Assembly: GCA_018052565.1 (NCBI GenBank)
Contig: JAGPNC010000002.1
Location: forward strand, 6,648-70,647
DNA: 64,000 nucleotides
From: Candidatus Shapirobacteria bacterium
Lineage (GTDB): Bacteria > Patescibacteriota > Microgenomatia > 0-14-0-10-38-17
Reading direction: 5' to 3'
Shown here: in pieces, positions 2,435 to 59,677 of the stretch
How positions within the stretch are numbered: the first letter of the stretch is position 1
How the letters are laid out: every line of letters starts with the position of its first letter
Notes under the pieces: model-generated
What the model was told of the DNA's origin: nothing
Seen by the model: only the letters and a program-made list of their open reading frames with translations
Databases searched by the model: none
Translations under genes and position numbers: made by a program

Positions 2435-3247
2435 TTTAATATTTTATTATATCTAACTAGCGATTATAGTATTATAATATATATTGTCAATAATAACAAC
2501 AAAATAAAAAAATCCGTAGAAGGTGATAATATTCTCGGCGGCGAAAGCTAAAAGAAGGCGAATAATTTTCTTGCTAAAATTATTTGGTGTTTTTCTCCTC
2601 GGGCGGTATCAATTTTGTCTAAAAGAACTTTAAAGCCTGCTTTTTCTATAATCTCTTTATTTTTTTGTGGTCCGCAACCACTCTAATATATCGGGACTCT
2701 ATGAAAAGTTCCTATGCCTTCCCGGTTGCCTGCTCCCATGGCCGCTAAAAAACAGGCTGTCCTTATCAAGGGAAGAATTATTTTTTTTAAATATTTAAGA
2801 TTTTTAATCTGCTTTCTTACCGAAGATTACTCTTCGGCAATCCGGCGGTATTCTTTGCCAGTCAGATCCTTATCCATAATAAAGAGGAAATCTTAAAAAT
2901 TATTTAATCTTAAAATTTTTTTCTTTGCTCCCTGGGTTTGAAGTTATTCAACGCCGGACGTTGAATAAAGACCCTTCTCCAATAGAGTAGCATTTTTCCT
3001 TTGTCGTATTAATTATATTTAATATGGACTCTTCAAGGGAAAGATGCCAATTTCTCTCTCTGTGGCTACCCCCCAAAACCTGCCCTCTTTCCTTCAAATT
3101 TGGGGATTCTTAAAGTTAAGGCGACCTCACTTAAAGGGAAAGTAATTTGTTTTCCCTCTTTTTTTTCCTCAACGATTTTTCTTATTTTCTCTAAATTTTA
3201 GCCTGCCCGGCGCATTCTCTCGGGTCCTCTTGTCATATGTCTATATT

Positions 3248-6867: not shown

Positions 6868-7079
6868 TAGAAATTATTAAGTTGATTGGGTTTTTCTTTA
6901 GGCGTCATCCTGAACTTGGTTCAAGATCTGTTTTCAAAAAATATCAAGTATAATTCAAAAGTTAAAGGTCAAAATGCAAAATTACAAGTCAAAAGTTAAA
7001 AGTTTTCTTTGTTTTACTGCTTTACTTTTGAATTTTAACTTGCACTTTTGCCTTTTGACTTTTGAATTTTTAATTTTTT

Positions 7080-8243
7080 TTATTCTCTTTTTCCAAACGG
7101 CGAAACGCGTCTTAATTTGGCGATCACTTGAGGCAAAACCGCCAAGACCTTATCAATTTCTTCCTCCGTTGTCCAGCGCCCTAGGGAGAGTCGGAGAGAG
7201 CCATGGGCTTCTTGAGGGGCCAAACCACAAGCTAAAAGAACATGGCTTGGTTCAAGCTTTGGCGAGGAGCAGGCGGAGGCAGTGGAAGCGGCAATACCAT
7301 AACGGTCTAATTCAAAGATAATTGCCTCGCCTTCCACGAATTCAAACCAGAAATTAGCGTTGTTGGCTAGTCTTTTAGTAGGATGACCGTTGAGGTGAGC
7401 ACCTGGGATGGTTTTTAAAACACCTTTAATTAATTTGTCGCGCAAACGGCTAATTTCTTTATTTTCCTCGTCCATATTTTTTAGGGCGATATTCACGGCT
7501 TTGGCAAAACCGACAATGGCGGGGACATTAACAGTAGAAGAGCGTTTGCCAAATTCCTGGCCGCCGCCGTGGAGAAGGGGTTCTATATTTACTCCTTTTC
7601 TAATATAAAGGCAAGCCGCTCCCTTAGGGCCATAAATTTTATGGGAAGAAGCGGTGAGAAGGTCAATATTTTCTTTTTTGACATCAAGGGGAATTTTCCC
7701 CAACGTTTGGGCGGCGTCGGTATGAAAATAAACACCGCGCTCTCGGCAGATTTTACCAATTTTACCAATGGGTTCTACGGTGCCGATTTCATTATTGGCA
7801 TGCATAACAGAAACAAGAATGGTGTCTTTCTTGATTTTTGCCTCTACCTCGCGGGGGGAAACCAAACCTTCGTGGTTAACGCTAATTTTTTCTATTTCGA
7901 ACCCCTGGCTTTTGAGCCAATTAGCGCTTTCCAAGACGCAATGGTGTTCAATGGCGGAGATTAAGAGATGACGGCCTTTTTGGCGGTTGGCAAAAGCGAC
8001 TCCTTTTAGAGCAAAATTATTGCTTTCGGTGGCCGAACTGGTAAAAATAATTTCCTCAGGATCGGCGTTTATGGCTTGGGCAAGCGTTTGCCGGCTTTCT
8101 TCCAGTGCCTCTTGGGCTTCTTGGCCAAAGAAGTGAAGAGAGGTAGAATTGCCAAACTTTTGCCGCCAGAAAGGTCGCATCGCCTCAAGCACCCGCTTAT
8201 CTACCGGTGTTGTCGCCGCGTAGTCAAGATAAATCCGATTCAT
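7080..8243 (-). CDS. nifS: cysteine desulfurase (class V aminotransferase, NifS/IscS)
   Basis: PLP-lysine motif SSHKIYGPKG. The C-terminal SSPKLEPSHVLLACG carries the active-site cysteine loop. Length and order match a nifS-nifU pair. Confidence 0.9.
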   Translation of the reverse strand: MNRIYLDYAATTPVDKRVLEAMRPFWRQKFGNSTSLHFFGQEAQEALEESRQTLAQAINADPEEIIFTSSATESNNFALKGVAFANRQKGRHLLISAIEHHCVLESANWLKSQGFEIEKISVNHEGLVSPREVEAKIKKDTILVSVMHANNEIGTVEPIGKIGKICRERGVYFHTDAAQTLGKIPLDVKKENIDLLTASSHKIYGPKGAACLYIRKGVNIEPLLHGGGQEFGKRSSTVNVPAIVGFAKAVNIALKNMDEENKEISRLRDKLIKGVLKTIPGAHLNGHPTKRLANNANFWFEFVEGEAIIFELDRYGIAASTASACSSPKLEPSHVLLACGLAPQEAHGSLRLSLGRWTTEEEIDKVLAVLPQVIAKLRRVSPFGKRE

Positions 8244-8507
8244 AATAAACAGAAGGTTTGTTTTTTTCTTAACTTTTGATTCTTAATTTTAGTTTTTGCT
8301 AATTAGCGATATTTTAAAGTCAAAATTAAAAAATTAAAATTTAAAATTACAAGTCAAAAGTTAAAAGTTTTTTTGCTTTACTACTTTACTTTTGAATTTT
8401 TACTTGTACTTTTAACTTTTAAATTTTGACTTTTAACTTTTATTATTATACCATTTTCCCCCCTTTTGTGGTAAGCTAACAAGACGGTTAAGTTTACTTT
8501 CTTGCCG

Positions 8508-9365
8508 ATGATTGATGTCCATGCTCACCTTAACTTTCAAGATTTTGCTAAGGATTACCAGGAAGTAGCTAAAGAGAGCTTTTCTTCGGGAGTAAAAGCG
8601 ATTATAAATATTGGTTCGAATTTTAAAACCTCCCAAAAAGCAGTTTTAATCGCTCAAGAAATTCCTTTTTGTTTTGCCAGTGTTGGTATTCACCCAATAC
8701 ACTATAATGAAGAGGAATTTAGTAAGAAAAAGTTTATTGATATTATAAATAATAGTAATGAAAAAGTAGTTGCTATCGGAGAAACGGGTTTCGATTACCA
8801 CCATTTGCCAAAAGAAGCCCCTCTGGCAATAGTTAAAAAATCACAAGAAGAGTTATTGGTAAGCCATTTGGAATTAGCTAAAAAATTTAATCTGCCGCTT
8901 ATTTTTCATTGCCGGGGGTCCGAAAATGATCCTTTTGGGGCTTATCTTGATTTGCTGGCGGTTTTAGAAAAATGGCGTGGTAAAATACAAGGCGAAGCCC
9001 CGCACCGTCTGGTACAGGGCAAAGTCCCGTACCGCATGGTACGGGGCGAAGTTCATTGTTTTTGCGGCAACGCCTTTTTAGCGGAAAAATTTTTAAATCT
9101 TGGTTTTTATCTTGGTTTTACCGGTAATATTACCTTTAAAAATATTGACGAGAGTTTGCTTGAGGCGGTTTCTTTTTGCCCGAAAGAAAGAATTTTAGCC
9201 GAAACTGACTGCCCTTATCTTGCCCCCGAGCCTTTTCGAGGCAAACGCAACCTTCCTCATTATGTAATTTATACGATCAAAAAGATTGCCCGGTTAAGAA
9301 AGGAGTCAATGGAGGAGACAGAGGTTTTATTAGAAGAAAATAGTCGGAGACTGTTCGGAATTTAA
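8508..9365 (+). CDS. tatD: TatD family metal-dependent hydrolase/DNase carrying an in-frame palindromic repeat insertion
   Basis: MIDVHAHLNF, GETGFDYH, HCRGS and HCFCGN motifs. The ORF track starts at TTG 8502; ATG 8508 is the more likely start. The insertion is listed separately at 8997-9050. Confidence 0.85.
   Translation: MIDVHAHLNFQDFAKDYQEVAKESFSSGVKAIINIGSNFKTSQKAVLIAQEIPFCFASVGIHPIHYNEEEFSKKKFIDIINNSNEKVVAIGETGFDYHHLPKEAPLAIVKKSQEELLVSHLELAKKFNLPLIFHCRGSENDPFGAYLDLLAVLEKWRGKIQGEAPHRLVQGKVPYRMVRGEVHCFCGNAFLAEKFLNLGFYLGFTGNITFKNIDESLLEAVSFCPKERILAETDCPYLAPEPFRGKRNLPHYVIYTIKKIARLRKESMEETEVLLEENSRRLFGI
8997..9050 (+). repeat. two tandem GC-rich mini-palindromes inside tatD, read in frame as APHRLVQG-K-VPYRMVRG
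   Basis: The first unit (gccccgcaccgtctggtacagggc) is an imperfect stem-loop. The second (gtcccgtaccgcatggtacggggc) has a perfect 8-bp stem, cccgtacc/ggtacggg. The same motif type (ccccgcaccgtatggtgc) recurs between genes at 9466-9495, 40610-40632, 41921-41945 and 54255-54285. Confidence 0.7.
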
Positions 9366-9472
9366 AAGTTCCCGCCTAAGGCGGGTCTCTGCCCAAGGCT
9401 GACCCCTTCCAAGGCGGGGCGCCTCTGGCGGAAAAAATTAAAAGTCCAAAGTTAAAAGTCAATCTGCCAACC
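9366..9472. repeat. GC-core double hairpin (three variants) plus AAAAGT hexamer run
   Basis: ttcccgcctaaggcgggtctctgcccaaggctgaccccttccaaggcggggcgcctctggcggaaaaaattaaaagtccaaagttaaaagtcaa. This matches the core copies at 23988, 26905, 26999, 29047 and 51291. Confidence 0.8.
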
Positions 9473-9499
9473 TTGCACCATTACGGTGCGGGGCTGGCG

Positions 9500-9685
9500 G
9501 GTAATTCAATTGTTCTAATCGCTCTAATTATTCTATCTAATTGACCTAAAGAAATTCCAAATCCCAATTCCCAAAATTACTTAAATAAAAAAATAAATCT
9601 ATTTGGGACTTTGGTGCTTGGGATTTATTTAGAAATTCGGTTAATTAGAATAATTAGAATAATTAGAATAATTTATCCCGTCGCC
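9500..9685 (-). repeat. palindromic element of about 170 bp that lacks a coding region (MITE-like), copy A, reverse orientation
   Basis: It is the reverse complement of the copies at 11531-11703 and 13586-13742. It ends in a fourfold taattagaa tandem (9641-9680). Its internal left half is roughly the reverse complement of its right half. Confidence 0.8.
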
Positions 9686-9741
9686 AATATTATCGGCAAC
9701 GGACTCAGGATAACGCATTGTACCCCTGCTTTTAGTTAATT

Positions 9742-11490
9742 GTGATGATGAAGGATTTTAAAAAAGTCATTTCTTTTGCCAAACCATATCGGTGGCAGAT
9801 TATTTTCGCGATGACGATGCTGGCGTTAGTGGTGGCGGCTGATTTAGCCCTCCCGCGGCTTATCCAAAAGTTAATTGATGAAGGAGTGGCAGTGGGTAAT
9901 TTAACGGTAGTTTGGCGACAGTCAGCCATTATTGTGGGGATTTCGTTTTTGGCGGCGATCTTTTCTTTTTTGAATACGGTTTTTTCGGTTCGGTCTTCCT
10001 ATTTTTTTGGTCGCGATCTTCGCTTGGCCCTTTTTAAAAAAGCTCAAAAACTTTCTTTTGCCAACTTTGATAATTGGGACTTATCAAAAATTTTGGTGCG
10101 TTTAACGGCTGATGTGGAAAGCCTACAGCAGACGCTGCGAATGACGATGAGGATTATTCTCCGTTCTCCCTTGATGGTGGTGGGGAGCAGCATTATGCTT
10201 TTGGGGACGAGTTTGGAGCTTTCTCTAATTGTTCTTTTCTTGTTGCCCGTTTTGGGAATTTTAATAGGAGTTTTTCTTTTTAAAGTTCGTCCCCTTTTTC
10301 GACAAGTTCAAAAAAAGTTAGAAGCCTTAAACCGGGTTTTGGTGGAGAATCTTAACGGGGCGCGGGTGGTGAAAGCTTTTGGCGGGGAAAAACGAGAAAT
10401 TAGCCGGTTTTTCCTTGCCAATCAAGATTTTGCCCGGCAAAATATTCAGGTAATGCAAATTTTCGCCATTTTAGCCCCCACTCTTTTATTGGTAATTAAT
10501 TTTGGAGGAATGGCGGTGGTTTGGTTGGGCGGCCAAAAAGTAATTGCTGGTGTTTTTAGCTCTGGCCAATTGGTGGCTTTTCTTAATTATCTTTTTTTGA
10601 CTATTTTCCCTTTGGTAATGCTGGGGATGGTAATCGCCCGCTTAGCGGCGGCGCGAGTTTCTGCCCAAAGAGTAGGAGAAATTTTCTCTCTTTCCCCCCA
10701 AGTAAAGGAGAAAAGAAATGCCCTAACTTTAGGGAAAATTAAGGGAGAAATTATTTTTGATGAGGTGGAATTTCGCTATCAGAAAGGAGCGCCGGCAGTT
10801 CTCCGTCAAGTTAACCTGAAGATTAAACCGGGGGAGAGAGTGGCGATTTTAGGCGCCACGGGGGCGGGGAAATCAACATTGATTTATCTTATTCCTCGTT
10901 TTTATGACCCAACCGCGGGAAGAGTTTTAATTGATGGCGTTAATCTTCGCCGGGCTTCTCTTCCTTCTTTGCGTTCTCAAATTGGGGTTTGTTTTCAACA
11001 GCCCCTGCTTTTTTCGGGAACAGTTGAAGACAATATCAAATATGGTTCGAAAGATATTAGCGACGAGAGGATGATTGAAGCGGCCAAAATTGCCCAAATC
11101 CATCATTTTATTATGAATTTACCCCAAGGGTATCAGACGCCGGTTTTGCAAGGAGGAGCTAATTTTTCCGGTGGCCAAAAACAGCGCTTAGCTTTAGCGC
11201 GCGCCTTGGCTTTACGGCCTAAGATTTTACTTCTGGACGATGCCACGAGCGCGTTGGATGCGCAAACAGAGATAAAAGTACAGCAGAATTTGCGAAAATT
11301 AGCGCAAAGGAAAGAAAGCACCATTTTAATGGTTGCCCAGCGAGTGAGTTCGGTTTTAAGTTTTGATCGGATTGTGATTTTAGATAGCGGCGTCATTAGT
11401 GCGGTAGGTACCCATCAAGAGCTTTTAGAAAAAAGTCAAATTTACCAGGAAATTTACCAATCACAACTAGGGGAAAGTTTATTGTTGTAA
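9742..11490 (+). CDS. ABC exporter, fused permease/ATPase, subunit 1 (MsbA/MdlB-like)
   Basis: Six predicted N-terminal transmembrane helices. Walker A GATGAGKST, signature LSGGQKQRLALARAL and Walker B ILLLDDATSALD. GTG start. Confidence 0.85.
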   Translation: MMMKDFKKVISFAKPYRWQIIFAMTMLALVVAADLALPRLIQKLIDEGVAVGNLTVVWRQSAIIVGISFLAAIFSFLNTVFSVRSSYFFGRDLRLALFKKAQKLSFANFDNWDLSKILVRLTADVESLQQTLRMTMRIILRSPLMVVGSSIMLLGTSLELSLIVLFLLPVLGILIGVFLFKVRPLFRQVQKKLEALNRVLVENLNGARVVKAFGGEKREISRFFLANQDFARQNIQVMQIFAILAPTLLLVINFGGMAVVWLGGQKVIAGVFSSGQLVAFLNYLFLTIFPLVMLGMVIARLAAARVSAQRVGEIFSLSPQVKEKRNALTLGKIKGEIIFDEVEFRYQKGAPAVLRQVNLKIKPGERVAILGATGAGKSTLIYLIPRFYDPTAGRVLIDGVNLRRASLPSLRSQIGVCFQQPLLFSGTVEDNIKYGSKDISDERMIEAAKIAQIHHFIMNLPQGYQTPVLQGGANFSGGQKQRLALARALALRPKILLLDDATSALDAQTEIKVQQNLRKLAQRKESTILMVAQRVSSVLSFDRIVILDSGVISAVGTHQELLEKSQIYQEIYQSQLGESLLL

Positions 11491-11530
11491 GGAGATGACT
11501 TGTTGTTCTGAACCCGTCGAAAATAATATT

Positions 11531-11703
11531 TGTGACGGGGTAAATTATTCTAATTATTCTAATTAACCGAATTTCTAAATAAACCCCAAGCACCAAAGTT
11601 CCAAATAGATTTATTTTTTATTTTTATTTAAGTAATTTTGGGAGTTGGGATTTGGAATTTCTCTAGGTCAATTAGAACAATTAGAGCAATTAGAATAATT
11701 TTT
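11531..11703 (+). repeat. palindromic MITE-like element of about 170 bp, copy B
   Basis: Near-identical to copy C. It sits between the two ABC exporter genes. Confidence 0.8.
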
Positions 11704-11765
11704 AACTTTAAAGCGATAGATTTGTGGTGCTAAATTTTCAAATGCTGATTTTCTTATAGCAGCTT

Positions 11766-13517
11766 ATGGCAATCAATAATAGCCTTTACCGGTTGAGCGT
11801 GGGGAAAAGATTACTTGCTTACTTTAAGCCTTTTTGGCCAAAACTAATTCTCGTGGGCTTATTCATTCTTTTGGGAATTGCCTTTAGCCTTTTGGAGCCT
11901 TACTTCTTGGGGAAAATTATTGATGACAAACTCTTGGTTGGAGATTGGCAGGGAGCCAAGAAAATGATTTTTATTTTAGGAGGGATTTATGTGGGGGGCT
12001 GGCTAGTGTTTGTCCTGCGCGAAAGGTTAATGGCTAAAATTTCCCAAAAAGCCTTATTTTCCTTGCGCCAGGATCTTTTTACTCATCTCCAGGAGCTTTC
12101 GATACGGTTTTTTGACCAAAGGGCCCATGGCGACCTGATGAGTCGGCTTACTAATGATATTGAGGCCATTAATCGCGCCTTGGGGCAAAACTTGCTTCAG
12201 CTGGCGAGTAACTTTTTATCATTAATTGCTGTCTTGATTTTCATCTTTTTCATTAATTTTCCCTTGGCCTTAACGGTGGCGATTAGTTTTCCTTTTGTGG
12301 CAGGGGTAACGATTTTTGTTACTAAAAGAACGAGGAAAGGTTTTCAGGCTTTACAAAAAGAGATTGGCTCTCTTAACGGAGTGCTGGAGGAGCAAATCGG
12401 GGGGATAAGAACGGTTCAGGCTTTTTCTCAACAAGAGCGGAGCTTGACTTTATTTTCCGAAAAGAACGAGGGAGTTTGTCGACAAGGGATTTATGCCTCT
12501 ACCTTCGCCTTTCTTCTCCCCCCTTTAATTAATATCTTTGCCAATGCTGATATTGGTTTGGTGGCAGGAGTTGGGGGATGGTTGGCTCTTCAGGGGAAAG
12601 TAGGCATTGGCTTGGTGGTGGCTTTTATTAACTATTCTCGTCAAGTTTCCCAGCCGGTGCGTCAATTAGCGGATATTTATAATTCTTTTCAAGAAGCCTT
12701 AGCGGGCGCCAGGCGGGTTTTTGAAGTTATTGATTATCAACCGGAGATTGGGGACGCTCCTAATGCTCGAGAGGTTAATCTTCGCGGTAACGTTTTCTTT
12801 GATAAAGTTAGCTTCTCTTATGATAAAGAGCCGGTTTTGGAAAAAATAAGTTTTGCTATTAAGCCCGGGCAAACATTAGCTTTAGTTGGTCCAACCGGAG
12901 CGGGGAAAACAACTATTGCTAATCTTCTTTTCCGTTTTTACGAGCCAAGAGAGGGAAAAATTTTTCTTGACGATTGGGAAATTAGGAAAATTAAAATTAG
13001 TTCGTTACGACGCCAGCTAGGATTGGTATTGCAGGATCCTTTTCTTTTCTCGACTACTATTTTGGAAAATATTCGCTATGGCCGGCCGGAGGCAAAAAAG
13101 AAAGAAGTCGTTGAAGCGGCCAAAATTGCTGGCGCCCATCAGTTTATTAAGCGCTTGCCCGAAGGATACGAAACAAAACTTTCTTGGGGGGGGACGGATT
13201 TAAGTCAGGGTCAGCGCCAGCTTTTAACCATTGCCCGAGCGGTTTTGGCCAATCCGGTGATTTTGCTTTTAGATGAGGCAACAAGCAGTGTTGATACCCG
13301 CACGGAAATAGAAATCCAGAAGGCCTTAGACCGGTTGCGTCAAGGCCGGACCAGCATTATTATTGCCCATCGGCTTTCGACCATCAGAAACGCGGACCAA
13401 ATTTTGTTTATTAAAAAAGGGAGAATAAGAGAACGGGGCAATCACCAAGAGCTTTTGGCCAAAAAAGGCTTTTATTATCGCTTTTACCGGGCGCAGTTTG
13501 GAGGACTAAGACCATGA
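11766..13517 (+). CDS. ABC exporter, fused permease/ATPase, subunit 2 (heterodimer partner)
   Basis: Walker A GPTGAGKTT, signature LSQGQRQLLTIARAV and Walker B ILLLDEATSSVD. It is arranged in tandem with the previous gene. Confidence 0.85.
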   Translation: MAINNSLYRLSVGKRLLAYFKPFWPKLILVGLFILLGIAFSLLEPYFLGKIIDDKLLVGDWQGAKKMIFILGGIYVGGWLVFVLRERLMAKISQKALFSLRQDLFTHLQELSIRFFDQRAHGDLMSRLTNDIEAINRALGQNLLQLASNFLSLIAVLIFIFFINFPLALTVAISFPFVAGVTIFVTKRTRKGFQALQKEIGSLNGVLEEQIGGIRTVQAFSQQERSLTLFSEKNEGVCRQGIYASTFAFLLPPLINIFANADIGLVAGVGGWLALQGKVGIGLVVAFINYSRQVSQPVRQLADIYNSFQEALAGARRVFEVIDYQPEIGDAPNAREVNLRGNVFFDKVSFSYDKEPVLEKISFAIKPGQTLALVGPTGAGKTTIANLLFRFYEPREGKIFLDDWEIRKIKISSLRRQLGLVLQDPFLFSTTILENIRYGRPEAKKKEVVEAAKIAGAHQFIKRLPEGYETKLSWGGTDLSQGQRQLLTIARAVLANPVILLLDEATSSVDTRTEIEIQKALDRLRQGRTSIIIAHRLSTIRNADQILFIKKGRIRERGNHQELLAKKGFYYRFYRAQFGGLRP

Positions 13518-13585
13518 ATGGGTTCAAAGTGGTTGGCATAATTGGTCATCCCGATCCCGTCGCAAATAATATTAACAAATGGATA

Positions 13586-13742
13586 AATTATTCTAATTAT
13601 TCTAATTAACCGAATTTCTAAATAAATCCCAAGCACCAAAGTTCCAAATAGATTTATTTTTTATTTTTATTTAAGTAATTTTGGGAATTGGGATTTGTAA
13701 TTTCTTTAGGTCAATTAGAATAATTAGAGCAATTAAAATAAC
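13586..13742 (+). repeat. palindromic MITE-like element of about 170 bp, copy C
   Basis: aattattctaattattctaattaaccgaatttctaaataaatcccaagcaccaaagttccaaatagattt...ggtcaattagaataattagagcaattaaaataa. Confidence 0.8.
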
Positions 13743-13790
13743 TTTTATCTTTTTTGCGAGCAAGTTAGTTTTTGCTATACTATATTCAGC

Positions 13791-14255
13791 ATGATTTTGG
13801 GAATTGATCCGGGAGTGGCCTCAACTGGCTGGGCGGTTTTAGACAAGAATAAATTAATCGCCTCTGGGTGTATTAAAACCAGCAAAGAAGATGATTTTTC
13901 TTCCCGCTTAAGCCAAATTTATAAGGAGGTAGAGGAAATCTGTTCTCGTTGGGCAGTGGCAGACTTAGCCATTGAGGAAGTTTTTTTTGCCAAAAATGCC
14001 AAAACGGCTTTAAAAGTAGCCCAGGTAATGGGAGCGATTAAAGCGGCGGCGCAAAATAAAGGCGTGCGGGTTTTTGGCTATACCCCCTTGCAAATTAAAA
14101 TTGCCGTGGTGGGTTATGGTCGGGCAGAGAAAAAACAGGTAGAGTTAATGGTGGGGCAAACGATTAATTTAGATCAAAAGATTAACTCTAATCACGCGGT
14201 TGATGCTTTAGCGGCGGCGCTAACCCATCAGGTGATTTTTAAAAAAAATGATTAG
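13791..14255 (+). CDS. ruvC: crossover junction endodeoxyribonuclease RuvC
   Basis: N-terminal ILGIDPGVASTGWAVLD and the conserved acidic residues. It is followed by ruvA and ruvB. Confidence 0.9.
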   Translation: MILGIDPGVASTGWAVLDKNKLIASGCIKTSKEDDFSSRLSQIYKEVEEICSRWAVADLAIEEVFFAKNAKTALKVAQVMGAIKAAAQNKGVRVFGYTPLQIKIAVVGYGRAEKKQVELMVGQTINLDQKINSNHAVDALAAALTHQVIFKKND

Positions 14256-15814: not shown

Positions 15815-15892
15815 GAAGGTTTGGTTGATAGACAATAGCTCCAAGTCGCACTTGAAAGGGAAAGTCATCCTAATAAAAATTAGAATATTATT

Positions 15893-15998
15893 TCAAATTC
15901 AAAATTCAAAATTTAAAATTTAAAATTAAAGTAAAAAGTAAAAAACTTTTTACTTTTAAATTGTAATTTTGCATTTTGACTTTTAACTTTTAACTTTT
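15893..15998. repeat. long imperfect AT-rich hairpin (AAAAGT/ACTTTT hexamer family)
   Basis: Left arm aaattcaaaatttaaaatttaaaattaaagtaaaaagtaaaaaac. Right arm tttttacttttaaattgtaattttgcattttgacttttaacttttaactttt. Confidence 0.75.
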
Positions 15999-16004
15999 AT
16001 TATC

Positions 16005-16616
16005 ATGTCCGAAATCGCCGTTGGCAAACTGGTTAAGGGGGATACTTTTTATTTTAACAACCGGCCCTTTATTGTCTTAGAGGTTCGGTCAAAGCATTTA
16101 GGCCGTGGTGGGGCAATCTATCGGGTAAAGATGCGTGACTTAAAGCAGGGGACAATTTTAACCAAAGCTTTTCGGCCTACGGAAAAATTTGAGGAAGTAG
16201 AAAGCGAAATCCTGCCGGTTAATTTTCTTTACACCGACGGGGAAGAAGCCTATTTTATTAATCCCCGGACTTTTGAGCAGGTAAGTTTAGCCTTAGAAAG
16301 GATTGGGGAAGGAGCGCCTCTGCTTAAAGAAGGCGAAAATTATCGCTTGAGGTTGGTGGATGGTGAGCCGGTGGACTTGATGATGCCGCCGAAGGCAAGA
16401 AGGCGAGTAATTGAGGCGCCTGAGGCCGTTCGTGGCAACACAGCCACCGCGGCCACTAAATGGGTAACGATTGAAGGAGGCGTTAAGATAGAAACCCCTC
16501 TTTTTATTAAAAAAAACGACGTGATTATTATTGATACCCGAACGCTGACTTACGAGGCGAAAGAAACGGGGCAGAATAGAGGAGGTGAGAATAATGAACC
16601 AAAGGAATCAAGATAA
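16005..16616 (+). CDS. efp: elongation factor P (tip residue of the modification loop is Arg)
   Basis: KHLGRGGAIYRVKMRDLK aligns with the KPGKGQAFARVKLRRL loop of EF-P. The residue at the modification tip is R. The protein has a roughly 15-aa C-terminal extension. Confidence 0.85.
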   Translation: MSEIAVGKLVKGDTFYFNNRPFIVLEVRSKHLGRGGAIYRVKMRDLKQGTILTKAFRPTEKFEEVESEILPVNFLYTDGEEAYFINPRTFEQVSLALERIGEGAPLLKEGENYRLRLVDGEPVDLMMPPKARRRVIEAPEAVRGNTATAATKWVTIEGGVKIETPLFIKKNDVIIIDTRTLTYEAKETGQNRGGENNEPKESR

Positions 16617-19400: not shown

Positions 19401-19493
19401 GGAAAATTTGGGAAGTTAAATTAAGAATTTGCGGCTGGGACATAATTCGTCATTCCGACGAAAGTGTCATCCTGATGGCAGATTGTATTTTCT

Positions 19494-20937: not shown

Positions 20938-21135
20938 AGTTAAAAGTCCAAAGTATAAAAATCTCAAAACTCAAATGGCAAATGTTAAAACTACAACTCA
21001 AAACTTAAATCTGAAAACACTTTTAAGTCTTAAAAAGTTTTGACATTTACCATTTAGTTTTGCGTTTTACCATTTGAGTTTTAAGATTTTATTTAGGTTT
21101 TGATCTTTGATTTTTGCATTTTGATTTTTCTTATT
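20938..21135. repeat. long imperfect hairpin, 'aaaactcaaatgg' variant of the intergenic repeat family
   Basis: Left arm (20945-21010) is taaaaatctcaaaactcaaatggcaaatgttaaaac.... Right arm (21040-21110) is gttttgacatttaccatttagttttgcgttttaccatttgagttttaagatttt. The reverse complement of the right arm is near-identical to 27033-27090. Confidence 0.75.
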
Positions 21136-21771: not shown

Positions 21772-23220
21772 ATGAATGCGCGCTTGGGAAAGATTCGCCA
21801 GGAGAGAATTAAAAAACTTCAGGAGTGGCGCCATCTTGGCGTTGACCCCTTTCCTCCTCGACTCCCCAAAAGAGAGCTAATAGAAAAAGCCAGGGGGGAA
21901 AAAGGAAAAAAAGTGAGTGTTTGCGGGCGGATTAGGGCTTGGCGTGGTCATGGTGGTTCTTCTTTTGCCGATCTTTATGATCAAAGCGGTAAGATCCAGC
22001 TTTTTTTCAGCCGTCGCGATTTGGGGGAGGAAAATTATCACCATCTTGATCTTTTAGATATTGGTGATTTTCTTTTCGTCCGGGGAGAAGTTTTTGAAAC
22101 AAAGAAGGGAGAAATTAGCGTTAAAGTTTCCTCTTATCAGCTTTTGGCTAAATCTTTACGTCCTTTGCCGGGTAAATGGCGAGGATTAAAAGATATTGAG
22201 CTACGATGCCGTAAGCGTTATCTGGATCTTCTGATTAACCCCGCTTCTTTTGATGTTTTTCTTAAAAGAAGCCAGACAGTGAGTTTTGTCCGCTCTTTTT
22301 TGGAAAAAGAAGGGTTTTTGGAGGTCGAAACGCCTACTCTTCAGCCGCTTTATGGCGGTGCTTCCGCGCGGCCGTTTGTTACCCACCACCATGCCCTAGA
22401 TGTTGATCTTTACCTGAAAGTTTCCGATGAGCTTTATCTTAAACGCCTGATTATTGGTGGGATAGAAAAGGTTTTTGAAATTGATCATAACTTTCGCAAC
22501 GAGGGAATTGACAAGCATCATAATCCGGAATTTACGATGATGGAATGCTACTGGGCGTATGCTGATTACCATGATATGATGAGGCTGACAGAAGAGCTTT
22601 TTTCCCGGGTGGCCAAAGAGGTTTTAGGGGAAACCATAATTTCTTATCACGGCCATAAAATTAATTTAAAGACGCCTTGGGAAAGGATAAGCATGGCGGA
22701 GGCAATTAAGCATTATTTGGGTTGGGACCCTCAAAAGATAAGCGACCGAGAATTAAAGAAAAAGCTAGCGCAAAAAAAGATGATTCTTCCGGGTGAATTT
22801 AATCGGGGGCAGGCAATGGCGGCTCTTTTCGAGGAGGTTGAGCCCTATTTAGTTCAACCTACTTTTATCTACGATTATCCCAAAGAGACAACGATGCTGT
22901 GCAAGTTGAAGCCAGAAAATCCCGACTTAATTGAACGCTTTGAGCCTTATATTGCCGGCATGGAAGTAGGTAATGCCTATTCGGAATTAAATGATCCGCT
23001 TTTACAGCGGGAATTTTTTGCCGATCAGGTAGAGAGGAAAAAAGCTGGCGATGAAGAAGCCACGCCAATGGATGAAGATTTTCTTGAGGCCATGGAGTAT
23101 GGAATGCCCCCCACCGGCGGGCTGGGGATTGGTATTGACCGGATGATAATGCTTTTAACAGGCCAGGAAAATATTCGCGATGTTATCCTTTTCCCGACGC
23201 TAAGGCCGAAGAAAGAATAA
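21772..23220 (+). CDS. lysS: lysine--tRNA ligase (class II)
   Basis: N-terminal OB fold, motif 1 LRCRKRYLDLLINP, motif 2 FRNEGID and motif 3 GGLGIGIDRMIMLLTG. Confidence 0.9.
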   Translation: MNARLGKIRQERIKKLQEWRHLGVDPFPPRLPKRELIEKARGEKGKKVSVCGRIRAWRGHGGSSFADLYDQSGKIQLFFSRRDLGEENYHHLDLLDIGDFLFVRGEVFETKKGEISVKVSSYQLLAKSLRPLPGKWRGLKDIELRCRKRYLDLLINPASFDVFLKRSQTVSFVRSFLEKEGFLEVETPTLQPLYGGASARPFVTHHHALDVDLYLKVSDELYLKRLIIGGIEKVFEIDHNFRNEGIDKHHNPEFTMMECYWAYADYHDMMRLTEELFSRVAKEVLGETIISYHGHKINLKTPWERISMAEAIKHYLGWDPQKISDRELKKKLAQKKMILPGEFNRGQAMAALFEEVEPYLVQPTFIYDYPKETTMLCKLKPENPDLIERFEPYIAGMEVGNAYSELNDPLLQREFFADQVERKKAGDEEATPMDEDFLEAMEYGMPPTGGLGIGIDRMIMLLTGQENIRDVILFPTLRPKKE

Positions 23221-23229
23221 AGACAGTAT

Positions 23230-23350
23230 AAAGTCAAAAGTTAAAATGCAAAAGTCAAAATTTCAAGTTAAAAGTTAAAAGTTTTTTTTGTTTTACTTTT
23301 GAATTTTTACTTGTACTTTTAACTTTTGAATTTTAACTTTTGACTTTTCT
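23230..23350. repeat. AAAAGT/ACTTTT hexamer hairpin
   Basis: aaagtcaaaagttaaaatgcaaaagtcaaaatttcaagttaaaagttaaaagt, a short loop, then ttttgaatttttacttgtacttttaacttttgaattttaacttttgactttt. Confidence 0.8.
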
Positions 23351-23969: not shown

Positions 23970-24092
23970 AAAAGTCAAAAGTTAAAATTTTCCGCCCAAG
24001 GCGGATCCGTCTCTGGCGGAAAAAGTCAAAAGTGCAAGTAAAAATTCAAAAGTAGCAAGGCAAAGAAACTTTTAACTTTTGAATTTTGAATT
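23970..24092. repeat. AAAAGT hexamer hairpin with GC core
   Basis: aaagtcaaaagttaaaattttccgcccaaggcggatccgtctctggcggaaaaagtcaaaagtgcaagtaaaaattcaaaagt ... acttttaacttttgaattttgaatt. Confidence 0.8.
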
Positions 24093-26865: not shown

Positions 26866-27125
26866 ATTAAAAGTCCAAAGTTAAAAGTTAAAAATTAAAA
26901 GTCAAAAATTCCCGCCCAAGGCGGGTCCGCCATGGGCGGAAAAAGTCAAAAGTTAAAAGTAAAAGAACAGATCAAAGAACAAAAATCAAAATGTCCCCCT
27001 AGGGCGGGGCGCCTCTGGCGGAAAAAGTATAAAAATCTCAAAACTCAAATGGCAAAACGCAAAACTAAATGGTAAATGTCAAAACTTTTAAGACTTAAAA
27101 GCGTTTTCAGATTTGAGCGCTGAAA
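26866..27125. repeat. composite repeat block: AAAAGT hexamers, two GC-core double hairpins and an 'aaaactcaaatgg' arm
   Basis: aaaagtccaaagttaaaagttaaaaattaaaagtcaaaaattcccgcccaaggcgggtccgccatgggcggaaaaagtcaaaagttaaaagt...ccccctagggcggggcgcctctggcggaaaaagtataaaaatctcaaaactcaaatggcaaaacgcaaaactaaatggtaaatgtcaaaactttt. Confidence 0.8.
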
Positions 27126-30267: not shown

Positions 30268-30269
30268 AA

Positions 30270-30385
30270 AAAATTCAAAATTCAAAAGTAAAAATGCAAA
30301 ATTACAAGTCAAAAGTTAAAAGTTTTTTTTGCTTCACTTTTTAATTTTAACTTGCACTTTTGACTTTTGAATTTTGAATTATAAC
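30270..30385. repeat. AAAAGT/ACTTTT hexamer hairpin
   Basis: aaaattcaaaattcaaaagtaaaaatgcaaaattacaagtcaaaagttaaaagt, a T-rich loop, then ctttttaattttaacttgcacttttgacttttgaattttgaatt. Confidence 0.8.
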
Positions 30386-30456
30386 TTTAGCCTTTACACT
30401 TTAAATTTTTTATAGCAGTATGAGGACTTTTTCGTTTATAATCTTTTTAACTATTT

Positions 30457-33699: not shown

Positions 33700-33830
33700 A
33701 ATGGAAGAAAAATTAAAAGTCAAAAGTTAAAAGTTAAAAGTCCAAGTAAAAATTCAAAAGTGAAGCAAAAAAAACTTTTGACTTTTAACTTGCAATTTTG
33801 AATTTTGCATTTTGACTTTTGAATTTATAA
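33700..33830. repeat. AAAAGT/ACTTTT hexamer hairpin
   Basis: aaagtcaaaagttaaaagttaaaagtccaagtaaaaattcaaaagtgaagc, aaaaaaa, then acttttgacttttaacttgcaattttgaattttgcattttgacttttgaattt. The arms are about 80% complementary. Confidence 0.8.
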
Positions 33831-33862
33831 CTTATTGTTTATTCAATTAAATGTTTTTAAAA

Positions 33863-40453: not shown

Positions 40454-40494
40454 GAAACCAATGGCTCAATTGCTGAATGGCCAAATTGCGTAGA

Positions 40495-40732
40495 AAAGTT
40501 AAAAGTTAAAAGTTAAAAGTTAAAATTACAAGTCAAAATTCAAAAGTAACAGGGCAAAGAACTTTTAACCCGCCTATCGGTGGGCGGGCTTTTGACTTGT
40601 CTACTAGCCATGCACCATACGGTGAGGGGCTAGCTGGCGGGAAACAAAAATCTTAAAACGTTTTTGAATTTTGATTTAGGCTTTGATCTTTGCTTTTTGC
40701 GTTTTGCGCTGAGATTTAATTCTTGATTTTTG
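40495..40732. repeat. composite repeat: AAAAGT run, GC-core hairpin, ccccgcacc-type mini-palindrome and tttgatct arm
   Basis: aaagttaaaagttaaaagttaaaagttaaaattacaagtcaaaattcaaaagt ... cccgcctatcggtgggcggg ... gcaccatacggtga ... tttgaattttgatttaggctttgatctttgctttttgcgttttgc. Confidence 0.75.
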
Positions 40733-41776: not shown

Positions 41777-41795
41777 TAACAGTTTTGAGGAGGTA

Positions 41796-42178
41796 AATTA
41801 TTTTAATTATTCTAATTGACCTAATTATTCTAAAGAAACCCCAAACGCCAAACCCCAAATTTTTAAATGATTTTTTTGCGACTGAGACATAATTCGTCAT
41901 TCTGACCCTGAGCAAAGCCCTGTACCAAACGGTGCGGGGCGAAGCAAGGGGAAGAATCCCCTCTGGAAATTATGTTTTAAAGGAGATCCTTCCCCCACTG
42001 TTGGCGGGGTCAGGATGACGCAGTGGACCCTGCTGCTCATTTATGTCACAGGGTCTTGTCGGCAGAAAGAATCATATTTTAGCCACGTTTTTATTTATAT
42101 TAATTTTGAGAATTGTGGCTTTGGGTGTTTTTTAGGTCAATTAGAATAATTAGAGCAATTAAGATAATTTTTTGATTT
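41796..42178. repeat. 170-bp MITE-like element interrupted by a nested GACATAA-TIR element
   Basis: Left part 41796-41876 (aattattttaattattctaattgacctaattattctaaagaaaccccaaacgccaaaccccaaat). Right part 42063-42178 (...ttttaggtcaattagaataattagagcaattaagataatttt). The nested insert 41878-42062 carries ctgagacataattcgtcattctgaccc ... ggggtcaggatgacgcag ... tttatgtcacag. Confidence 0.7.
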
Positions 42179-44311: not shown

Positions 44312-44490
44312 AAAGTTAAAAGTAAGGCAAATCGTAAAAAAGCAAAGATTAAAAATAAAAACAACAAACAGTAATTAGCAACTCGTAATTAAAAAATAGT
44401 TTTGTCTCTGGTAATTAGCAAGGCTTTGAGCTATAAACTTTTGACTTTTAATTTGAAATTTTGACTTTTTAATTTTAAATTTTGAATTTT
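44312..44490. repeat. AAAAGT/ACTTTT hexamer hairpin with long internal spacer
   Basis: aaaaagttaaaagtaaggcaaatcgtaaaaaagcaaagattaaaaataaaaac ... cttttgacttttaatttgaaattttgactttttaattttaaattttgaatttt. Confidence 0.75.
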
Positions 44491-44493
44491 GTT

Positions 44494-45510
44494 ATGAGGT
44501 TGCTTGTTACCGGCGGGGCGGGTTTTATTGGCACTAATTTTATCCGCTACTGGGTTAAAAATCATCCCCAAGACAAGATTGTTAATCTTGACAAGCTCAC
44601 CTACGCCGGTGATCGGCAAAATTTAGCGGACCTGGAGAACACTTCTTCCTATTGTTTTGTTAAGGGCGATATCGGCGATCCCGAATTGGTAGACAAGCTG
44701 ATGAAAGAGGTTGACACAGTGATAAACTTTGCGGCCGAAAGTCATGTTGATCGTTCAATTGATAATCCCGAAGTTTTTTTAAAAACTAATATTTTGGGGA
44801 CTTTTAACTTGCTCGAGGCAGCGTTGAAAAATAAAGTTAAGCGGTTTCATCATATTTCAACCGATGAAGTTTTTGGCGAGCTTTCCTTAAAATCAAAAAG
44901 AAAGTTTAACGAAAAAACGAAATTTTCTCCCCGAAGTCCTTATTCTGCTTCTAAAGCCGGTTCCGACCATTTGGTTTTAAGTTATTACCACACCTATGGG
45001 CTACCGGTAACGATTACCAATTGTTCCAATAATTACGGCCCTTATCAGTATCCGGAAAAATTTATCCCCCGCATGATTACCAATCTTTTGGAGGGTAAGA
45101 AAATTCCTATCTACGGTGACGGCAAATATGTTCGCGATTGGCTTTATGTTGATGATCATGTGCGGGCGATTGAGGCGGTTTTGTTTTACGGCAAGCCGGG
45201 GCAAACTTATTGCGTGGGTGGGTTAACTAAAGATGTCAGCAATCTTGATCTGGCGAAAATGATTCTAAAGATTATGGGCAAAGGCGAAGATTATTTAGAA
45301 TTTGTGGCCGATCGGGCGGGCCATGACCGGCGCTATGCCGTTGATTGGCAAAAGATTAAGGATAAACTTGGTTGGCAGCCCCAAGAAACAATTGAATCGG
45401 GGTTGGAAAAAACAGTTTCTTGGTATTGCCAAAATAAGCTGTGGTGGCAGAAAAAAAAGAAAGAAGCGGAAAATTTTTACCAAAAATTAGCCGCCAAAAA
45501 ATTTAAATGA
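44494..45510 (+). CDS. rmlB: dTDP-glucose 4,6-dehydratase
   Basis: LVTGGAGFIGTNF Rossmann fold, catalytic YSASKAGSDHLV. Length and order match rmlBCD. Confidence 0.9.
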   Translation: MRLLVTGGAGFIGTNFIRYWVKNHPQDKIVNLDKLTYAGDRQNLADLENTSSYCFVKGDIGDPELVDKLMKEVDTVINFAAESHVDRSIDNPEVFLKTNILGTFNLLEAALKNKVKRFHHISTDEVFGELSLKSKRKFNEKTKFSPRSPYSASKAGSDHLVLSYYHTYGLPVTITNCSNNYGPYQYPEKFIPRMITNLLEGKKIPIYGDGKYVRDWLYVDDHVRAIEAVLFYGKPGQTYCVGGLTKDVSNLDLAKMILKIMGKGEDYLEFVADRAGHDRRYAVDWQKIKDKLGWQPQETIESGLEKTVSWYCQNKLWWQKKKKEAENFYQKLAAKKFK

Positions 45511-51196: not shown

Positions 51197-51352
51197 AAAG
51201 TTAAATTCAAAATGCAAAAGTCAAAATGCAAAATTCCAAGTTAAAAGTTAAAAGTCTTTTTGCATTACTTTTGAATTTTTACTTGTAATTTTTCCGCCAG
51301 AGGCGGACCCGCCTTGGGCGGGGAGTTTTAAATTTTAACTTTTAACTTTGAT
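51197..51352. repeat. AAAAGT hexamer hairpin plus inverted GC core
   Basis: aaagttaaattcaaaatgcaaaagtcaaaatgcaaaattccaagttaaaagttaaaagt ... acttttgaatttttacttgtaatttttccgccagaggcggacccgccttgggcgggg. The GC core is the reverse complement of the secA-embedded unit. Confidence 0.8.
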
Positions 51353-51357
51353 TTTAT

Positions 51358-54211: not shown

Positions 54212-54560
54212 GCTGAGACATAATTCTTGATGCTGTTGTAAATTTGCCCGCCTGCCGGCGAGGCCCCGCACCGTATGGTGCAGGACGAGGCAGGATTCAG
54301 CGTCATCCTATATCGGACACATCAAAAATTCCAAATCCCAAATAACAAATCACAAACAAATTCCAATAACCAAATTCCAAAGGATGACACTTTCGCCAGC
54401 CCCGTAGCAAATATTATTTACGGCGGGGCCAGGGTGACGGCTTGCTTTCGCTGCGTCATTCCGGGCTTGACCCGGAATCTGCCTTGAGGCGGAAAGAAGG
54501 GCAGATCCTGGCCCTGATTTTTATCAGGGCAGGCTTTTCGTTAGTTGGGATGACGAGTTG
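54212..54560. repeat. cluster of GACATAA-TIR / gtcatcc and ccccgcacc-type palindromic repeats
   Basis: gctgagacataattc ... gccccgcaccgtatggtgcagg ... cagcgtcatcctata ... gcgtcattccgggcttgacccggaatc ... ggcagatcctggccctgatttttatcagggcaggc. It fills about 350 bp of non-coding DNA between ugd and the GT2-GtrA gene. Confidence 0.55.
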
Positions 54561-59672: not shown

Positions 59673-59677
59673 TTTTT

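Follow-up and report, generated by a model that had tools for sequence, protein, structure and literature searches.

Palindromic repeats apparently gained at three neighbouring gene boundaries around an ABC exporter pair, and their likely place in a hairpin family of the Candidate Phyla Radiation

The locus and its three repeat copies

Two genes for ABC half-transporters are located next to each other in the window (the whole stretch of DNA that was analysed, 64 kb in length, from a MAG of Candidatus Shapirobacteria): ABC1 (positions 9745..11490, +), with the domains ABC_membrane and ABC_tran, and ABC2 (11766..13517, +), an ancient paralogue of ABC1 with 34% amino acid identity. A TatD gene precedes this exporter pair and ruvC follows it. 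The gaps between these genes contain one copy each of an AT-rich repeat of 215–222 nt, here named c1 (9508..9724, -), c2 (11495..11716, +) and c3 (13538..13759, +). A first-pass annotation had reported three near-identical, imperfectly palindromic copies with tandem ends at these sites; this description was confirmed, and the boundaries were moved outward on one side of the core, where an extension of 36–48 nt with a GC hairpin had been overlooked. Since all three copies share the extension, the units were set as given above.

The core, which is 95–97% identical in pairwise comparisons, extends over ~9508–9675 in c1, 11543–11703 in c2 and 13586–13745 in c3. The extension of c1, with its GC hairpin (9677–9703), points toward the start codon of ABC1; those of c2 and c3 occupy 11495–11542 and 13538–13585, with the GC hairpin at 11513–11540 and, in degenerate form, at 13556–13582. 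c2 begins 4 nt past the stop codon of ABC1 and leaves 49 nt to the ATG of ABC2; c3 is found in the gap delimited by the stop of ABC2 (13517) and the ATG of ruvC (13791). An exact 41-mer was restricted to 9624–9664 (-), 11543–11583 (+) and 13586–13626 (+), where shuffled sequences lead one to expect none. Arrays of 9-nt units (AATTATTCT / TAATTAGAA) were detected by TRF at both termini, together with inner 7-nt units (AAATCCC / TTTGGGA). The arm tips are 82% complementary over 32–33 nt and pairing continues inward, the whole core being an imperfect palindrome; according to folding calculations each copy would form one long imperfect hairpin (z-scores of -5.7 to -6.4 for RNA and -3.4 for DNA). 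The GC hairpin of the extension, CCCGTNG-loop AATAWTATT-CNACGGG, is common to c1–c3 (P<0.0005), at an identity between the extensions of only about 65–70%, versus 95–97% for the cores. To the right of the palindrome, the similarity between c2 and c3 was not significant (P=0.83), and neither an ORF nor an Rfam match was found within the copies.

Copies were counted in the 64-kb window, and 71 kb of the source genome were covered. The search for further copies, as proposed in the first pass, yielded a diverged family member in the window, c4 (41794..42170, +; arms ~41794–41868 and 42085–42170), and a large family in other genomes (see below). c4 separates a nucleotidyltransferase gene from rtcB, two genes that converge on it; the c4 loop holds a nested, unrelated, GC-rich structured insert of roughly 200 nt (~41870–42075). 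The GC hairpin occurs a fourth time, stand-alone, as CCCCGTAGCAAATATTATTTACGGCGGGG at 54402..54426 (no strand assigned), with no adjoining 9-mer palindrome. No member of the c1–c3 subfamily was found in the JGI metagenomes searched.

An assignment to TIGR-Tas guide arrays was considered and rejected. Such arrays consist of tandem ~36-nt units or stem-loops, contain box C/D motifs and lie beside a gene for a Nop-domain Tas protein. Each of c1–c3, by contrast, is one hairpin, set apart from the others and built from 9-nt sub-units instead of tandem ~36-nt units, and their immediate neighbours are TatD, ABC transporter and RuvC genes, with no Nop-domain Tas among them.

Comparison with close relatives

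Three contigs (L076, L077 and L079), whose ABC proteins are 85–89% identical to those of the window (89% for ABC1 and 85% for ABC2 in L076), were used for comparison. The synteny TatD-ABC1-ABC2 is retained in all of them, and the orthologous sites are empty of c1–c3. From the ABC1 stop to the ABC2 ATG there are 3 nt in the three relatives (gagTAAaaaATG) versus 275 nt in the window; the gap between TatD and ABC1 amounts to 89 nt in L076 versus 376 nt in the window. At the c2 junction, ABC1 extends 4 residues beyond the C-terminus of its L076 orthologue. The ancestral Shine-Dalgarno (SD) sequence of ABC2, AGGAGAG, lies inside the 3' end of ABC1 in L076 and is no longer adjacent to ABC2 in the window. 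Orthologous genes of window and relatives are 80–83% identical at the nucleotide level, the copy cores 95–97%.

This comparison of sequences shows that three adjacent gene boundaries acquired the core palindrome once the lineage of this Shapirobacterium had separated from its nearest sampled relatives, and that one of these gains fell inside a formerly tightly coupled two-gene ABC operon. The synteny check suggested in the first pass thus points to a recently gained, dispersed non-coding repeat; with further copies present and orthologous sites empty, the reading as a mobile repeat survives. At ruvC, a promoter-like site (TTGCGA-16-TATACT with TG; 13754..13781, +) is found 9 nt upstream of the ATG; its -10 block TTTTTGCTATACT is kept in the relatives and is therefore part of ruvC, not of the element. 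Two further observations were made: c3 coincides with the breakpoint of an indel, the window lacking about 5 kb that the relatives possess, and palindromes of the heptamer type persist in a relative at orthologous gaps.

If the ABC pair had come in as a cassette, the copies might be scars of that recombination, as the first-pass annotation also considered. The pair is indeed bracketed by copies, and the next-best homologues of ABC2 fall to 55% identity, two of them bearing labels (Anaerolineales, Chloroflexi) other than those of the Candidate Phyla Radiation (CPR). However, this origin is contradicted by the syntenic relatives, which have the same gene context and none of the elements, so that c1–c3 appear as recent gains instead; likewise the pair is adjacent in more distant homologues, one copy lies between the two genes and not at the edges alone, and the same element family occurs beside unrelated genes in many genomes. 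Acquisition scars seem scarcely credible.

Another explanation would be local copying only: one element could have been duplicated to neighbouring gaps, or three older ones homogenised, by recombination or gene conversion within a 4-kb stretch, with no dedicated mobility mechanism. The three near-identical copies are confined to 4.3 kb, the sole other copy in 64 kb (c4) is diverged, target-site duplications (TSDs) are absent and c3 is at the indel breakpoint mentioned above. The lower identity of the extensions also fits; it suggests that the cores were perhaps homogenised by gene conversion and are not very recent inserts, or else that core and extension have had different pasts. Yet the ABC1-ABC2 site was formerly a 3-nt spacer and hence had no older element to convert, c1 is oriented opposite to c2 and c3, and in other genomes sharp-ended subfamilies exist at unlinked loci, for which some dispersal route is needed. 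Local copying as the whole explanation is held to be quite improbable.

Related elements in other genomes

A 26-mer from the outer arm (AATTATTYTAATTATTCTAATTRACC) matched exactly at 74 loci in the species-representative genomes searched, nearly all labelled as Patescibacteria/CPR lineages or TPA "Saccharibacteria" MAGs; 39 of the matches are full palindromes. The arms of this family are composed of tandem 7–9-nt units, the outer ones of the TAATTATTC / TAATTRACC and the inner ones of the AAATCCC / AATGACC types. Unit number varies; from one genome to another the inner sequence is free to change, yet it stays self-complementary. Long members (about 450–550 nt) have one gene in the loop; short members (100–250 nt) are empty. 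The arms of c2 and c4 match arms from other genomes at 90–98% over 37–52 nt, those flanking PF05635 genes included, and the 5' arm of c4 is 98% identical over 51 nt to an element of Yanofskybacteria.

At six of the 74 loci the same arms, 445–550 nt apart, surround one PF05635 ORF (45–48 bits, cut-off 33.8). For 77 of 78 testable metagenomic relatives of this ORF, inverted arms with this type of unit stand on either side, and in L058, L085, L083 and L154 PF05635 genes are enclosed by arms that match c1–c4 at 90–97%. Of 58 loci, 44 have the ORF in the direction of both neighbours and 2 have it against both; within the 64-kb window, no PF05635 gene was found. The intervening sequences (IVSs) of rRNA are stem-bordered elements with PF05635 which are cut by RNase III (PMC4990558); rRNA insertions of CPR bacteria contain PF05635 ORFs (PMC11270868), and PF05635 is of Avd-like nature (PMC10053308). 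None of the sampled elements was inside an rRNA gene, and no rRNA gene adjoined any of them. The CPR-wide foldback family is previously undescribed, and we are inclined, with some reservation, to regard c1, c2, c3 and the older c4 as ORF-less short forms of it, i.e., of an IVS-like foldback (hairpin) family.

The designation as MITE-like in the first pass holds for size, lack of coding capacity, copy number and terminal inverted repeats; the empty sites in relatives and the other hairpins nested within copies would also agree with it. It fails in other respects: there was no TSD at the window copies, at ~40 full palindromes or at four sharply bounded copies from Doudnabacteria (about 45 inspected copies), and the only long forms found enclose a PF05635 gene and no transposase or other mobility enzyme. 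Variable unit numbers and a free, self-complementary inner sequence are likewise at odds with a canonical MITE, that is, an internally deleted IS whose terminal repeats are recognised by a DDE or Y1 transposase that moves it in trans. Because neither TSD nor transposase was found, c1–c3 are not considered canonical MITEs, an origin which appears very improbable, and it is from presence/absence and copy similarity that they are called mobile.

Full palindromes were located between co-directional genes in 31 of 32 cases, versus a base rate of 75% (P about 0.001). They fill the intergenic gaps, the distance to stop and start codons being usually under 20 nt. In the window, strong palindromes are present in about 20 of 32 testable intergenic gaps. 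The placement of c1–c3 at the ABC pair, previously called striking, is less special than it looked, because of these palindromic gaps and the general position of the family between co-directional genes; it is largely a genome-wide trait. An SD-like motif was seen in only about 9 of 56 window genes, and TGnTAnnnT is found 6–12 nt upstream of the ATG in many.

Such data could suggest operon punctuation, i.e., regulatory cassettes selected at gene boundaries, the stem of which would terminate, insulate or be cut to release short-leader mRNAs, while the terminal TTAGAATAATT would provide a -10-like TAGAAT for a leaderless start. The filled stop-to-start gaps are in favour, as are the -10-like boxes right before ATGs in an SD-poor genome and the heptamer-type palindromes kept in the relative. 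Family-wide, the downstream ATG usually follows 1–12 nt past the terminal unit, and solo 5' arms stand immediately upstream of rpsP and rpsG. However, close relatives express the same genes without c1–c3, the window copies have larger margins to the ATG (31–49 nt), and the conserved promoter of ruvC is its own, outside the element. The idea of a terminator cassette received no support from a consensus scan, which gave no intrinsic terminator in or beside c1–c3; the GC hairpin has a 12–14-nt loop and no T-run, which does not correspond to an intrinsic terminator. A sense-strand bias of RNA folding was not found either (sense more stable in 11 of 31 elements, antisense in 20; 117 versus 134 G-U pairs), and in a symmetric palindrome an outward promoter would also be directed antisense into the upstream gene. 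A regulatory cassette therefore appears unlikely.

Interpretation and known systems

As short forms of the foldback family, c1–c3 would be selfish DNA which lands, with no TSD, in short spacers between co-directional genes. They would probably be co-transcribed with the flanking genes and tolerated because the RNA forms a long AU-rich stem extruding from the message. This stem would probably be cut by RNase III, like the stems of rRNA IVSs, which is an analogy, since no sampled element lies in an rRNA gene. The sense-strand fold bears no mark of selection in the 31 elements compared above, which speaks against this reading, as does the lack of a PF05635 gene in the window. Through the gain of c2, ABC2 may have been deprived of SD coupling to ABC1 and would now depend on a short-leader or leaderless-type start of its own, the prevailing mode in this genome. 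As the enzyme that moves the DNA, the PF05635 protein is the sole candidate encoded by the family.

A wider and rather doubtful proposal would make the PF05635 hairpin elements a distinct class of mobile elements dwelling in transcripts, which insert between cistrons or into rRNA helices and are excised by RNase III. In SD-poor bacteria of the CPR, polycistronic messages might in this way be split into mRNAs with short leaders; PF05635 might bind the arms and drive copying, possibly via an RNA intermediate, with a reverse transcriptase of the host as partner, in the manner of Avd in DGRs. c1–c3 would then be non-autonomous copies whose recent gain uncoupled the ABC operon, so that its two genes would now be expressed separately.

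To our knowledge, no explanation has been found in thirty years for the IVSs of rRNA genes and their S23p/PF05635 ORF, and we know of nobody who could account for their movement or the role of the protein. The results point to elements of the IVS kind, with recognisable unit-repeat arms, as abundant between ordinary protein-coding genes across the CPR. Their long (PF05635-bearing) and short (empty) forms resemble autonomous and non-autonomous transposons. Comparing occupied with empty sites in closely related genomes allows the element to be observed as it spreads; the insertion mechanism and the role of the Avd-like protein outside DGRs can thus be studied on a large body of comparative data. 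The findings also bear on operon expression in tiny, SD-poor genomes packed with intergenic palindromes, and should account for many of the small ORFs wrongly called, and of the unusual intergenic regions, in annotations of CPR MAGs.

Among known systems, the IVSs of rRNA (S23p/PF05635 ORF; Leptospira, Coxiella, CPR insertions) are likewise stem-loops with long inverted-repeat borders, a long form with a single PF05635 ORF in the loop, ORF-less forms and a sporadic distribution that hints at gain and transfer. Like the CPR elements, they are not known to have a transposase or a TSD (PMC4990558, PMC11270868). However, rRNA IVSs are situated in rRNA helices and the CPR elements between protein-coding genes; the CPR arms have 45–80 nt of tandem 7–9-nt units, compared with about 28 bp in Coxiella; and CPR short forms far outnumber the long ones. 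RNase III excision belongs to the rRNA IVSs and would apply to the CPR elements by analogy.

Correia/CREE, ERIC, RUP, BOX and MITEs are likewise small intergenic repeats without coding capacity and present in multiple copies; they have inverted ends and possible hairpins in co-transcribed RNA, and they too show presence/absence between close relatives. Correia elements make TA duplications, whereas the CPR elements have no TSD; unlike MITEs, the latter have no transposase-bearing parent among the long forms found, their ends are variable-number sub-repeat arrays and PF05635 is the sole cargo. With REP, REPIN-RAYT and BIMEs they share intergenic hairpins without TSDs, mostly in co-directional or convergent gaps, and mosaic clusters with other short repeats, e.g., in the window gap 9366–9741. 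The CPR arms, as read from the sequence, do not contain the GTAG-type REP core, no RAYT (Y1 transposase) gene was noticed in the 64 kb inspected, and REPINs are lineage-specific, whereas the CPR element sequence is conserved across many classes. Eukaryotic Foldback (FB) transposons also have long inverted arms of variable-number tandem sub-repeats, with little or no loop in most copies and a gene in a minority; they belong to another domain of life, make TSDs and have a known transposase, and the resemblance to the CPR elements is architectural only.

Repeats in the window

The first-pass annotation had reported three copies of a MITE-like palindrome of about 170 bp around the ABC half-transporter genes ABC1 and ABC2, and these copies (c1, c2 and c3) were confirmed in the sequence: an exact 41-mer of the left arm was present at just three places in the entire window (0 expected). 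The core palindromes were located at 9508–9675 (c1, reverse orientation), 11543–11703 (c2, +) and 13586–13745 (c3, +). They shared pairwise identities of 95–97%, and each formed a single long imperfect hairpin (RNA z = -5.7 to -6.4; DNA z = -3.4). The outer arms consisted of tandem 9-nt units, AATTATTCT on the 5' side and TAATTAGAA on the 3' side, and the inner arms of 7-nt units (AAATCCC / TTTGGGA); as read from the sequence, the 5' arm was poor in G and the 3' arm poor in C on both strands.

The palindrome had been described correctly, but a one-sided extension and a fourth copy had been missed. The extension, of 36–48 nt, includes a small GC hairpin (CCCGTNG, loop AATAWTATT, CNACGGG), which was found once more as a solitary structure at 54402–54426. 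The extension is significantly common to c1, c2 and c3 (P < 0.0005), with an identity of only about 65–70%. Since the cores are far more alike (95–97%) than the extensions, the three adjacent cores may perhaps have been homogenised by gene conversion, or core and extension may have had different histories. To the right of the palindrome the similarity between copies was at chance level (P = 0.83); with the extension on the other side, the whole units thus comprise about 215–222 nt, namely 9508–9724 (c1, -), 11495–11716 (c2, +) and 13538–13759 (c3, +). The idea that c2 had been copied from c3, taking along the promoter and initial codons of ruvC, was discarded, given the same right-flank value and an unstable MAFFT alignment.

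The diverged fourth copy, c4 (41794–42170), contains a GC-rich insert of about 200 nt nested in its loop. This insert (41870–42075) starts with GCGACTGAGACATAATTCGTCATTCTGACCC, is strongly structured (z = -7.3) and had no match in Rfam; pieces related to it, with the 5' motif, are present in two further gaps (19424–19475 and 54202–54235). For c1–c4 themselves, Rfam yielded no family at the gathering threshold nor at E ≤ 1. At 54300–54430 an array of G-poor units (AAATCCCAAATAACAAATCACAAACAAATTCCAATAACC...) lacks a mirror arm and precedes the solitary GC hairpin; an ORF of 70 aa predicted across this stretch (54275–54487) is probably spurious.

A second and more abundant class of intergenic palindromes is built from 7-nt units (AAAAGTC/AAAAGTT ... 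AACTTTT/GACTTTT) and is found between tandem, divergent and convergent genes alike, at 6950–7090, 8310–8450, 15890–16005, 20950–21135, 23220–23350, 30260–30400, 33700–33840, 40490–40570, 44427–44497, 51200–51364, 57000–57130 and 59556–59680. A GC-rich repeat family, CCCGCCCAAGGCGGGTCCGCCTCTGGCGGAAAAAGT, adjoins AT-rich palindromes (9365–9430, 23990–24025, 26915–26950, 26997–27033, 29053–29126 and 51290–51325) and creates mosaic, BIME-like intergenic regions; the gap 9366–9741, for example, comprises this repeat, heptamer units, the GC hairpin CCCCGCACCGTAATGGTGCA (9474–9493) and c1. Two stretches were free of ORFs of at least 70 aa, 2435–3247 (813 nt) and 60818–62273 (1456 nt). The latter lies where the AT skew is strongly negative (-0.33) and gave nothing in Rfam at the gathering threshold.

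Absence of the elements in close relatives

In the window, annotated as Candidatus Shapirobacteria (Microgenomates, CPR), the local gene order begins with an IscS-like aminotransferase (minus strand), followed by TatD (8502–9365), c1, ABC1 (9745–11490), c2, ABC2 (11766–13517), c3 and ruvC-ruvA-ruvB. ABC1 and ABC2 are ancient paralogues, with 34% protein identity. The nearest database relatives, three independent assemblies (L076, L077 and L079), showed protein identities of 89% for ABC1 and 85% for ABC2 and nucleotide identities of 80–83%; L076 shares with the window the order RRM-NifU-IscS-TatD-ABC1-ABC2 ... RuvCAB-EFP-YtxH-Lon. In all three relatives the ABC1 stop is separated from the ABC2 start by 3 nt (gagTAAaaaATG), and a Shine-Dalgarno sequence for ABC2, AGGAGAG, is located within the 3' end of ABC1. 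In the window this gap measures 275 nt, and the ABC1 frame extends four codons further, into the inserted DNA. Likewise, the TatD-ABC1 spacer is 376 nt long, versus 89 nt in L076. In remoter homologues (about 55% identity), too, the two genes overlap or lie close together, so that the adjacent arrangement is the ancestral one.

At the place of c3 the relatives carry about 5 kb with genes for LytR-CpsA-Psr, an alpha/beta hydrolase, a Mur ligase and Ddl, none of which was found anywhere in the 64-kb window; L079 is without LytR between ABC2 and ruvC. c3 lies at this breakpoint (window 13517–13791 versus 11761–17000 in L076 and 2856–6313 in L079). The -10 block of ruvC (TTTTTGCTATACT, 9–10 nt upstream of the ATG) is conserved in the window and the relatives, and lies outside c3.

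As these relatives lack the elements at the orthologous sites, c1–c3 are younger than the split between the window and its relatives. The suggestion that the copies are scars from acquisition of the transporter pair does not hold, because the relatives already possess the pair in syntenic position. Heptamer palindromes are present in L076 at two orthologous gaps (IscS-TatD and RuvB-EFP), with diverged sequence; they are old residents, and c1–c3 are newcomers. Beyond the relatives with 83–85% identity, homologues of ABC2 drop to 55%, and two of these have non-CPR labels (Anaerolineales, Chloroflexi), a hint that the exporter pair may be rare in CPR, or may once have been transferred horizontally.

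The visible consequence for the pair is the loss of the Shine-Dalgarno sequence formerly within the 3' end of ABC1. A similar motif precedes only about 9 of 56 putative genes in the window, and ABC2, like most, has none. Many genes possess an extended -10-like TGnTAnnnT or a TATAAT-like box 6–12 nt upstream of the ATG, e.g., at 13773–13781 (ruvC) and 52880–52890 (gene at 52898), which suggests that leaderless mRNAs, or mRNAs with very short leaders, could be widespread in this genome.

A family in CPR genomes and its link to PF05635

In a set of 185,579 species-representative genomes, the outer 26 nt of the arm, AATTATTYTAATTATTCTAATTRACC, had exact matches at 74 loci; the source MAG itself was not among the matches in this set. 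Nearly all hosts are labelled as CPR/Patescibacteria lineages (including Doudna-, Yanofsky-, Kuenen-, Staskawicz-, Falkow-, Zambryski-, Berkel- and Liptonbacteria, Sungiibacteriota, Magasanikiibacteriota and Paceibacterota) or as TPA "Saccharibacteria" MAGs, and a handful as "Gammaproteobacteria" (automated TPA MAGs) or simply "bacterium". In 39 of 76 matches the 26-mer formed the outer 5' arm of a palindrome of 90–340 nt with the architecture of c1–c3. The inner units and the loop vary freely among genomes while self-complementarity is kept, and the arms of c2 and c4 are 90–98% identical over 37–52 nt to those of other lineages. Viral contigs contained no match to the 26-mer and hence no evidence of phage carriage; a subfamily-specific 33-mer had no match in JGI metagenomes, i.e., no additional copies of the c1–c3 subtype. 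Searchable full texts of the literature did not contain the arm motifs, and a query of them for CPR with palindromic or MITE terms also returned no description of these elements.

One Doudnabacteria genome contained a sharply bounded subfamily (AATTATTC...GAATAATT), whose four copies are unlinked and have unrelated flanks and no target-site duplication; a 43-nt GC hairpin was nested in two of the four. Small GC-rich hairpins of 35–45 nt are nested within the AT-rich palindromes of loci L016, L070, L056 and L061 (e.g., CCTGTCCTCCGCAGTAGCAGTAGCTACTGCTACGGAGGATGGAGG; CCCCGTTAGAAA...TTTCTAACGGGG). Some members of a subfamily have them, always at the same position, and others do not, which gives the impression of hairpins inserted as a second layer. 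Target-site duplications were sought at c1–c3 and at family copies, and none were found. As a mobility enzyme was not found either, the designation as a canonical MITE had to be abandoned, and the first-pass interpretation holds in part.

Six of the 74 loci have this 5' arm and, at a distance of 445–550 nt, its mirror image, with a single ORF of about 125 aa between them; the arms pair over 45–60 nt, with the ORF in the loop. Five aligned proteins of this kind were about 70% identical, in spite of very different hosts. They belong to PF05635, the S23p or intervening-sequence (IVS) protein, and a metagenome search with the enclosed protein retrieved 564 relatives. In 77 of the 78 best testable metagenomic loci the inverted repeat across the ORF was better than in shuffled controls, and the arms consisted of the same unit types (CTAATTNNC, AATGACNAAT). 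The ORF was co-directional with both neighbours at 44 of 58 loci and opposed to both at 2 of 58. No PF05635 gene was detected by tblastn in the window or its contig extension. At a Doudnabacteria locus (L003, about 2619–3125 of the scan strand), which also holds tRNA genes, half an element is followed by an 81-aa ORF for a stand-alone GIY-YIG nuclease.

Placement between genes and relation to intervening sequences

Among the full palindromes of the family, 31 of 32 classifiable cases were situated between co-directional genes, one between convergent and none between divergent genes; the base rate of co-directional pairs in the same loci was 75% (P about 0.001). The gap is nearly filled: distances from stop to element and from element to next start, approximate because ORF calls were crude, are usually < 20 nt, and the downstream ATG commonly follows 1–12 nt past the terminal TTAGAATAATT. 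Solo 5' arms without a mirror arm, always in the sense, G-poor orientation, make up the entire stop-to-start spacer before rpsP (S16), rpsG (S7) and a third gene (L019 4253–4285, L047 4965–5015 and L006 3473–3507; scan-strand coordinates).

The placement around the exporter genes had been considered striking, but proved less exceptional. Palindromes as such are common in the window: in a rough test with only 8 shuffles per gap, 20 of 32 testable gaps (≥ 60 nt) folded far better than shuffles (z ≤ -3), including tandem, divergent and convergent gaps, most of them with palindromes of the AAAAGTN type. Still notable is that a single young subfamily occupies three consecutive boundaries, including one inside an operon whose genes were previously coupled.

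A role as terminators was not borne out, as a consensus scan found no intrinsic terminator site. A split ribosome-binding site, with a Shine-Dalgarno sequence upstream of the 5' arm brought close to the ATG by the hairpin, was discarded because such sequences were not enriched (6/31 versus 12/93, P = 0.39). A test for selection on the sense-strand RNA showed no bias in G-U pair asymmetry or in minimum free energies; the sense strand folded better in 11 and the antisense strand in 20 of 31 elements. Palindromy thus seems to belong to the DNA and not to reflect selection on the RNA. TIGR-Tas arrays, raised by a literature match, were dismissed, since the elements neither form tandem arrays nor have a Tas neighbour. 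An apparent sarcin-ricin motif in one locus (L038) proved to be coincidental.

The evidence best supports a reading of c1–c4 as ORF-less short forms of a family of IVS-like foldback elements. In itself, the element is probably neutral or selfish. Such elements would spread as selfish DNA, be co-transcribed with their neighbours and fold in the RNA, where the stem could be removed or cleaved by RNase III; this would explain why an insertion inside an operon is tolerated.

ORFs of PF05635 are the hallmark of rRNA intervening sequences, which are bordered by stems, are of unknown mobility and are cut from pre-rRNA by RNase III (PMC4990558). Such ORFs occur in rRNA insertions of CPR (PMC11270868), and the protein is homologous to Avd, an accessory protein of DGRs (PMC10053308). 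The family link provides a tractable handle on the long-standing puzzle of IVSs and PF05635, and also bears on operon organisation in CPR genomes. While rRNA IVSs lie in rRNA genes, none of the sampled family elements was in, or flanked by, rRNA genes; the family is read here as IVS-type hairpin elements between protein genes, with short non-coding derivatives.
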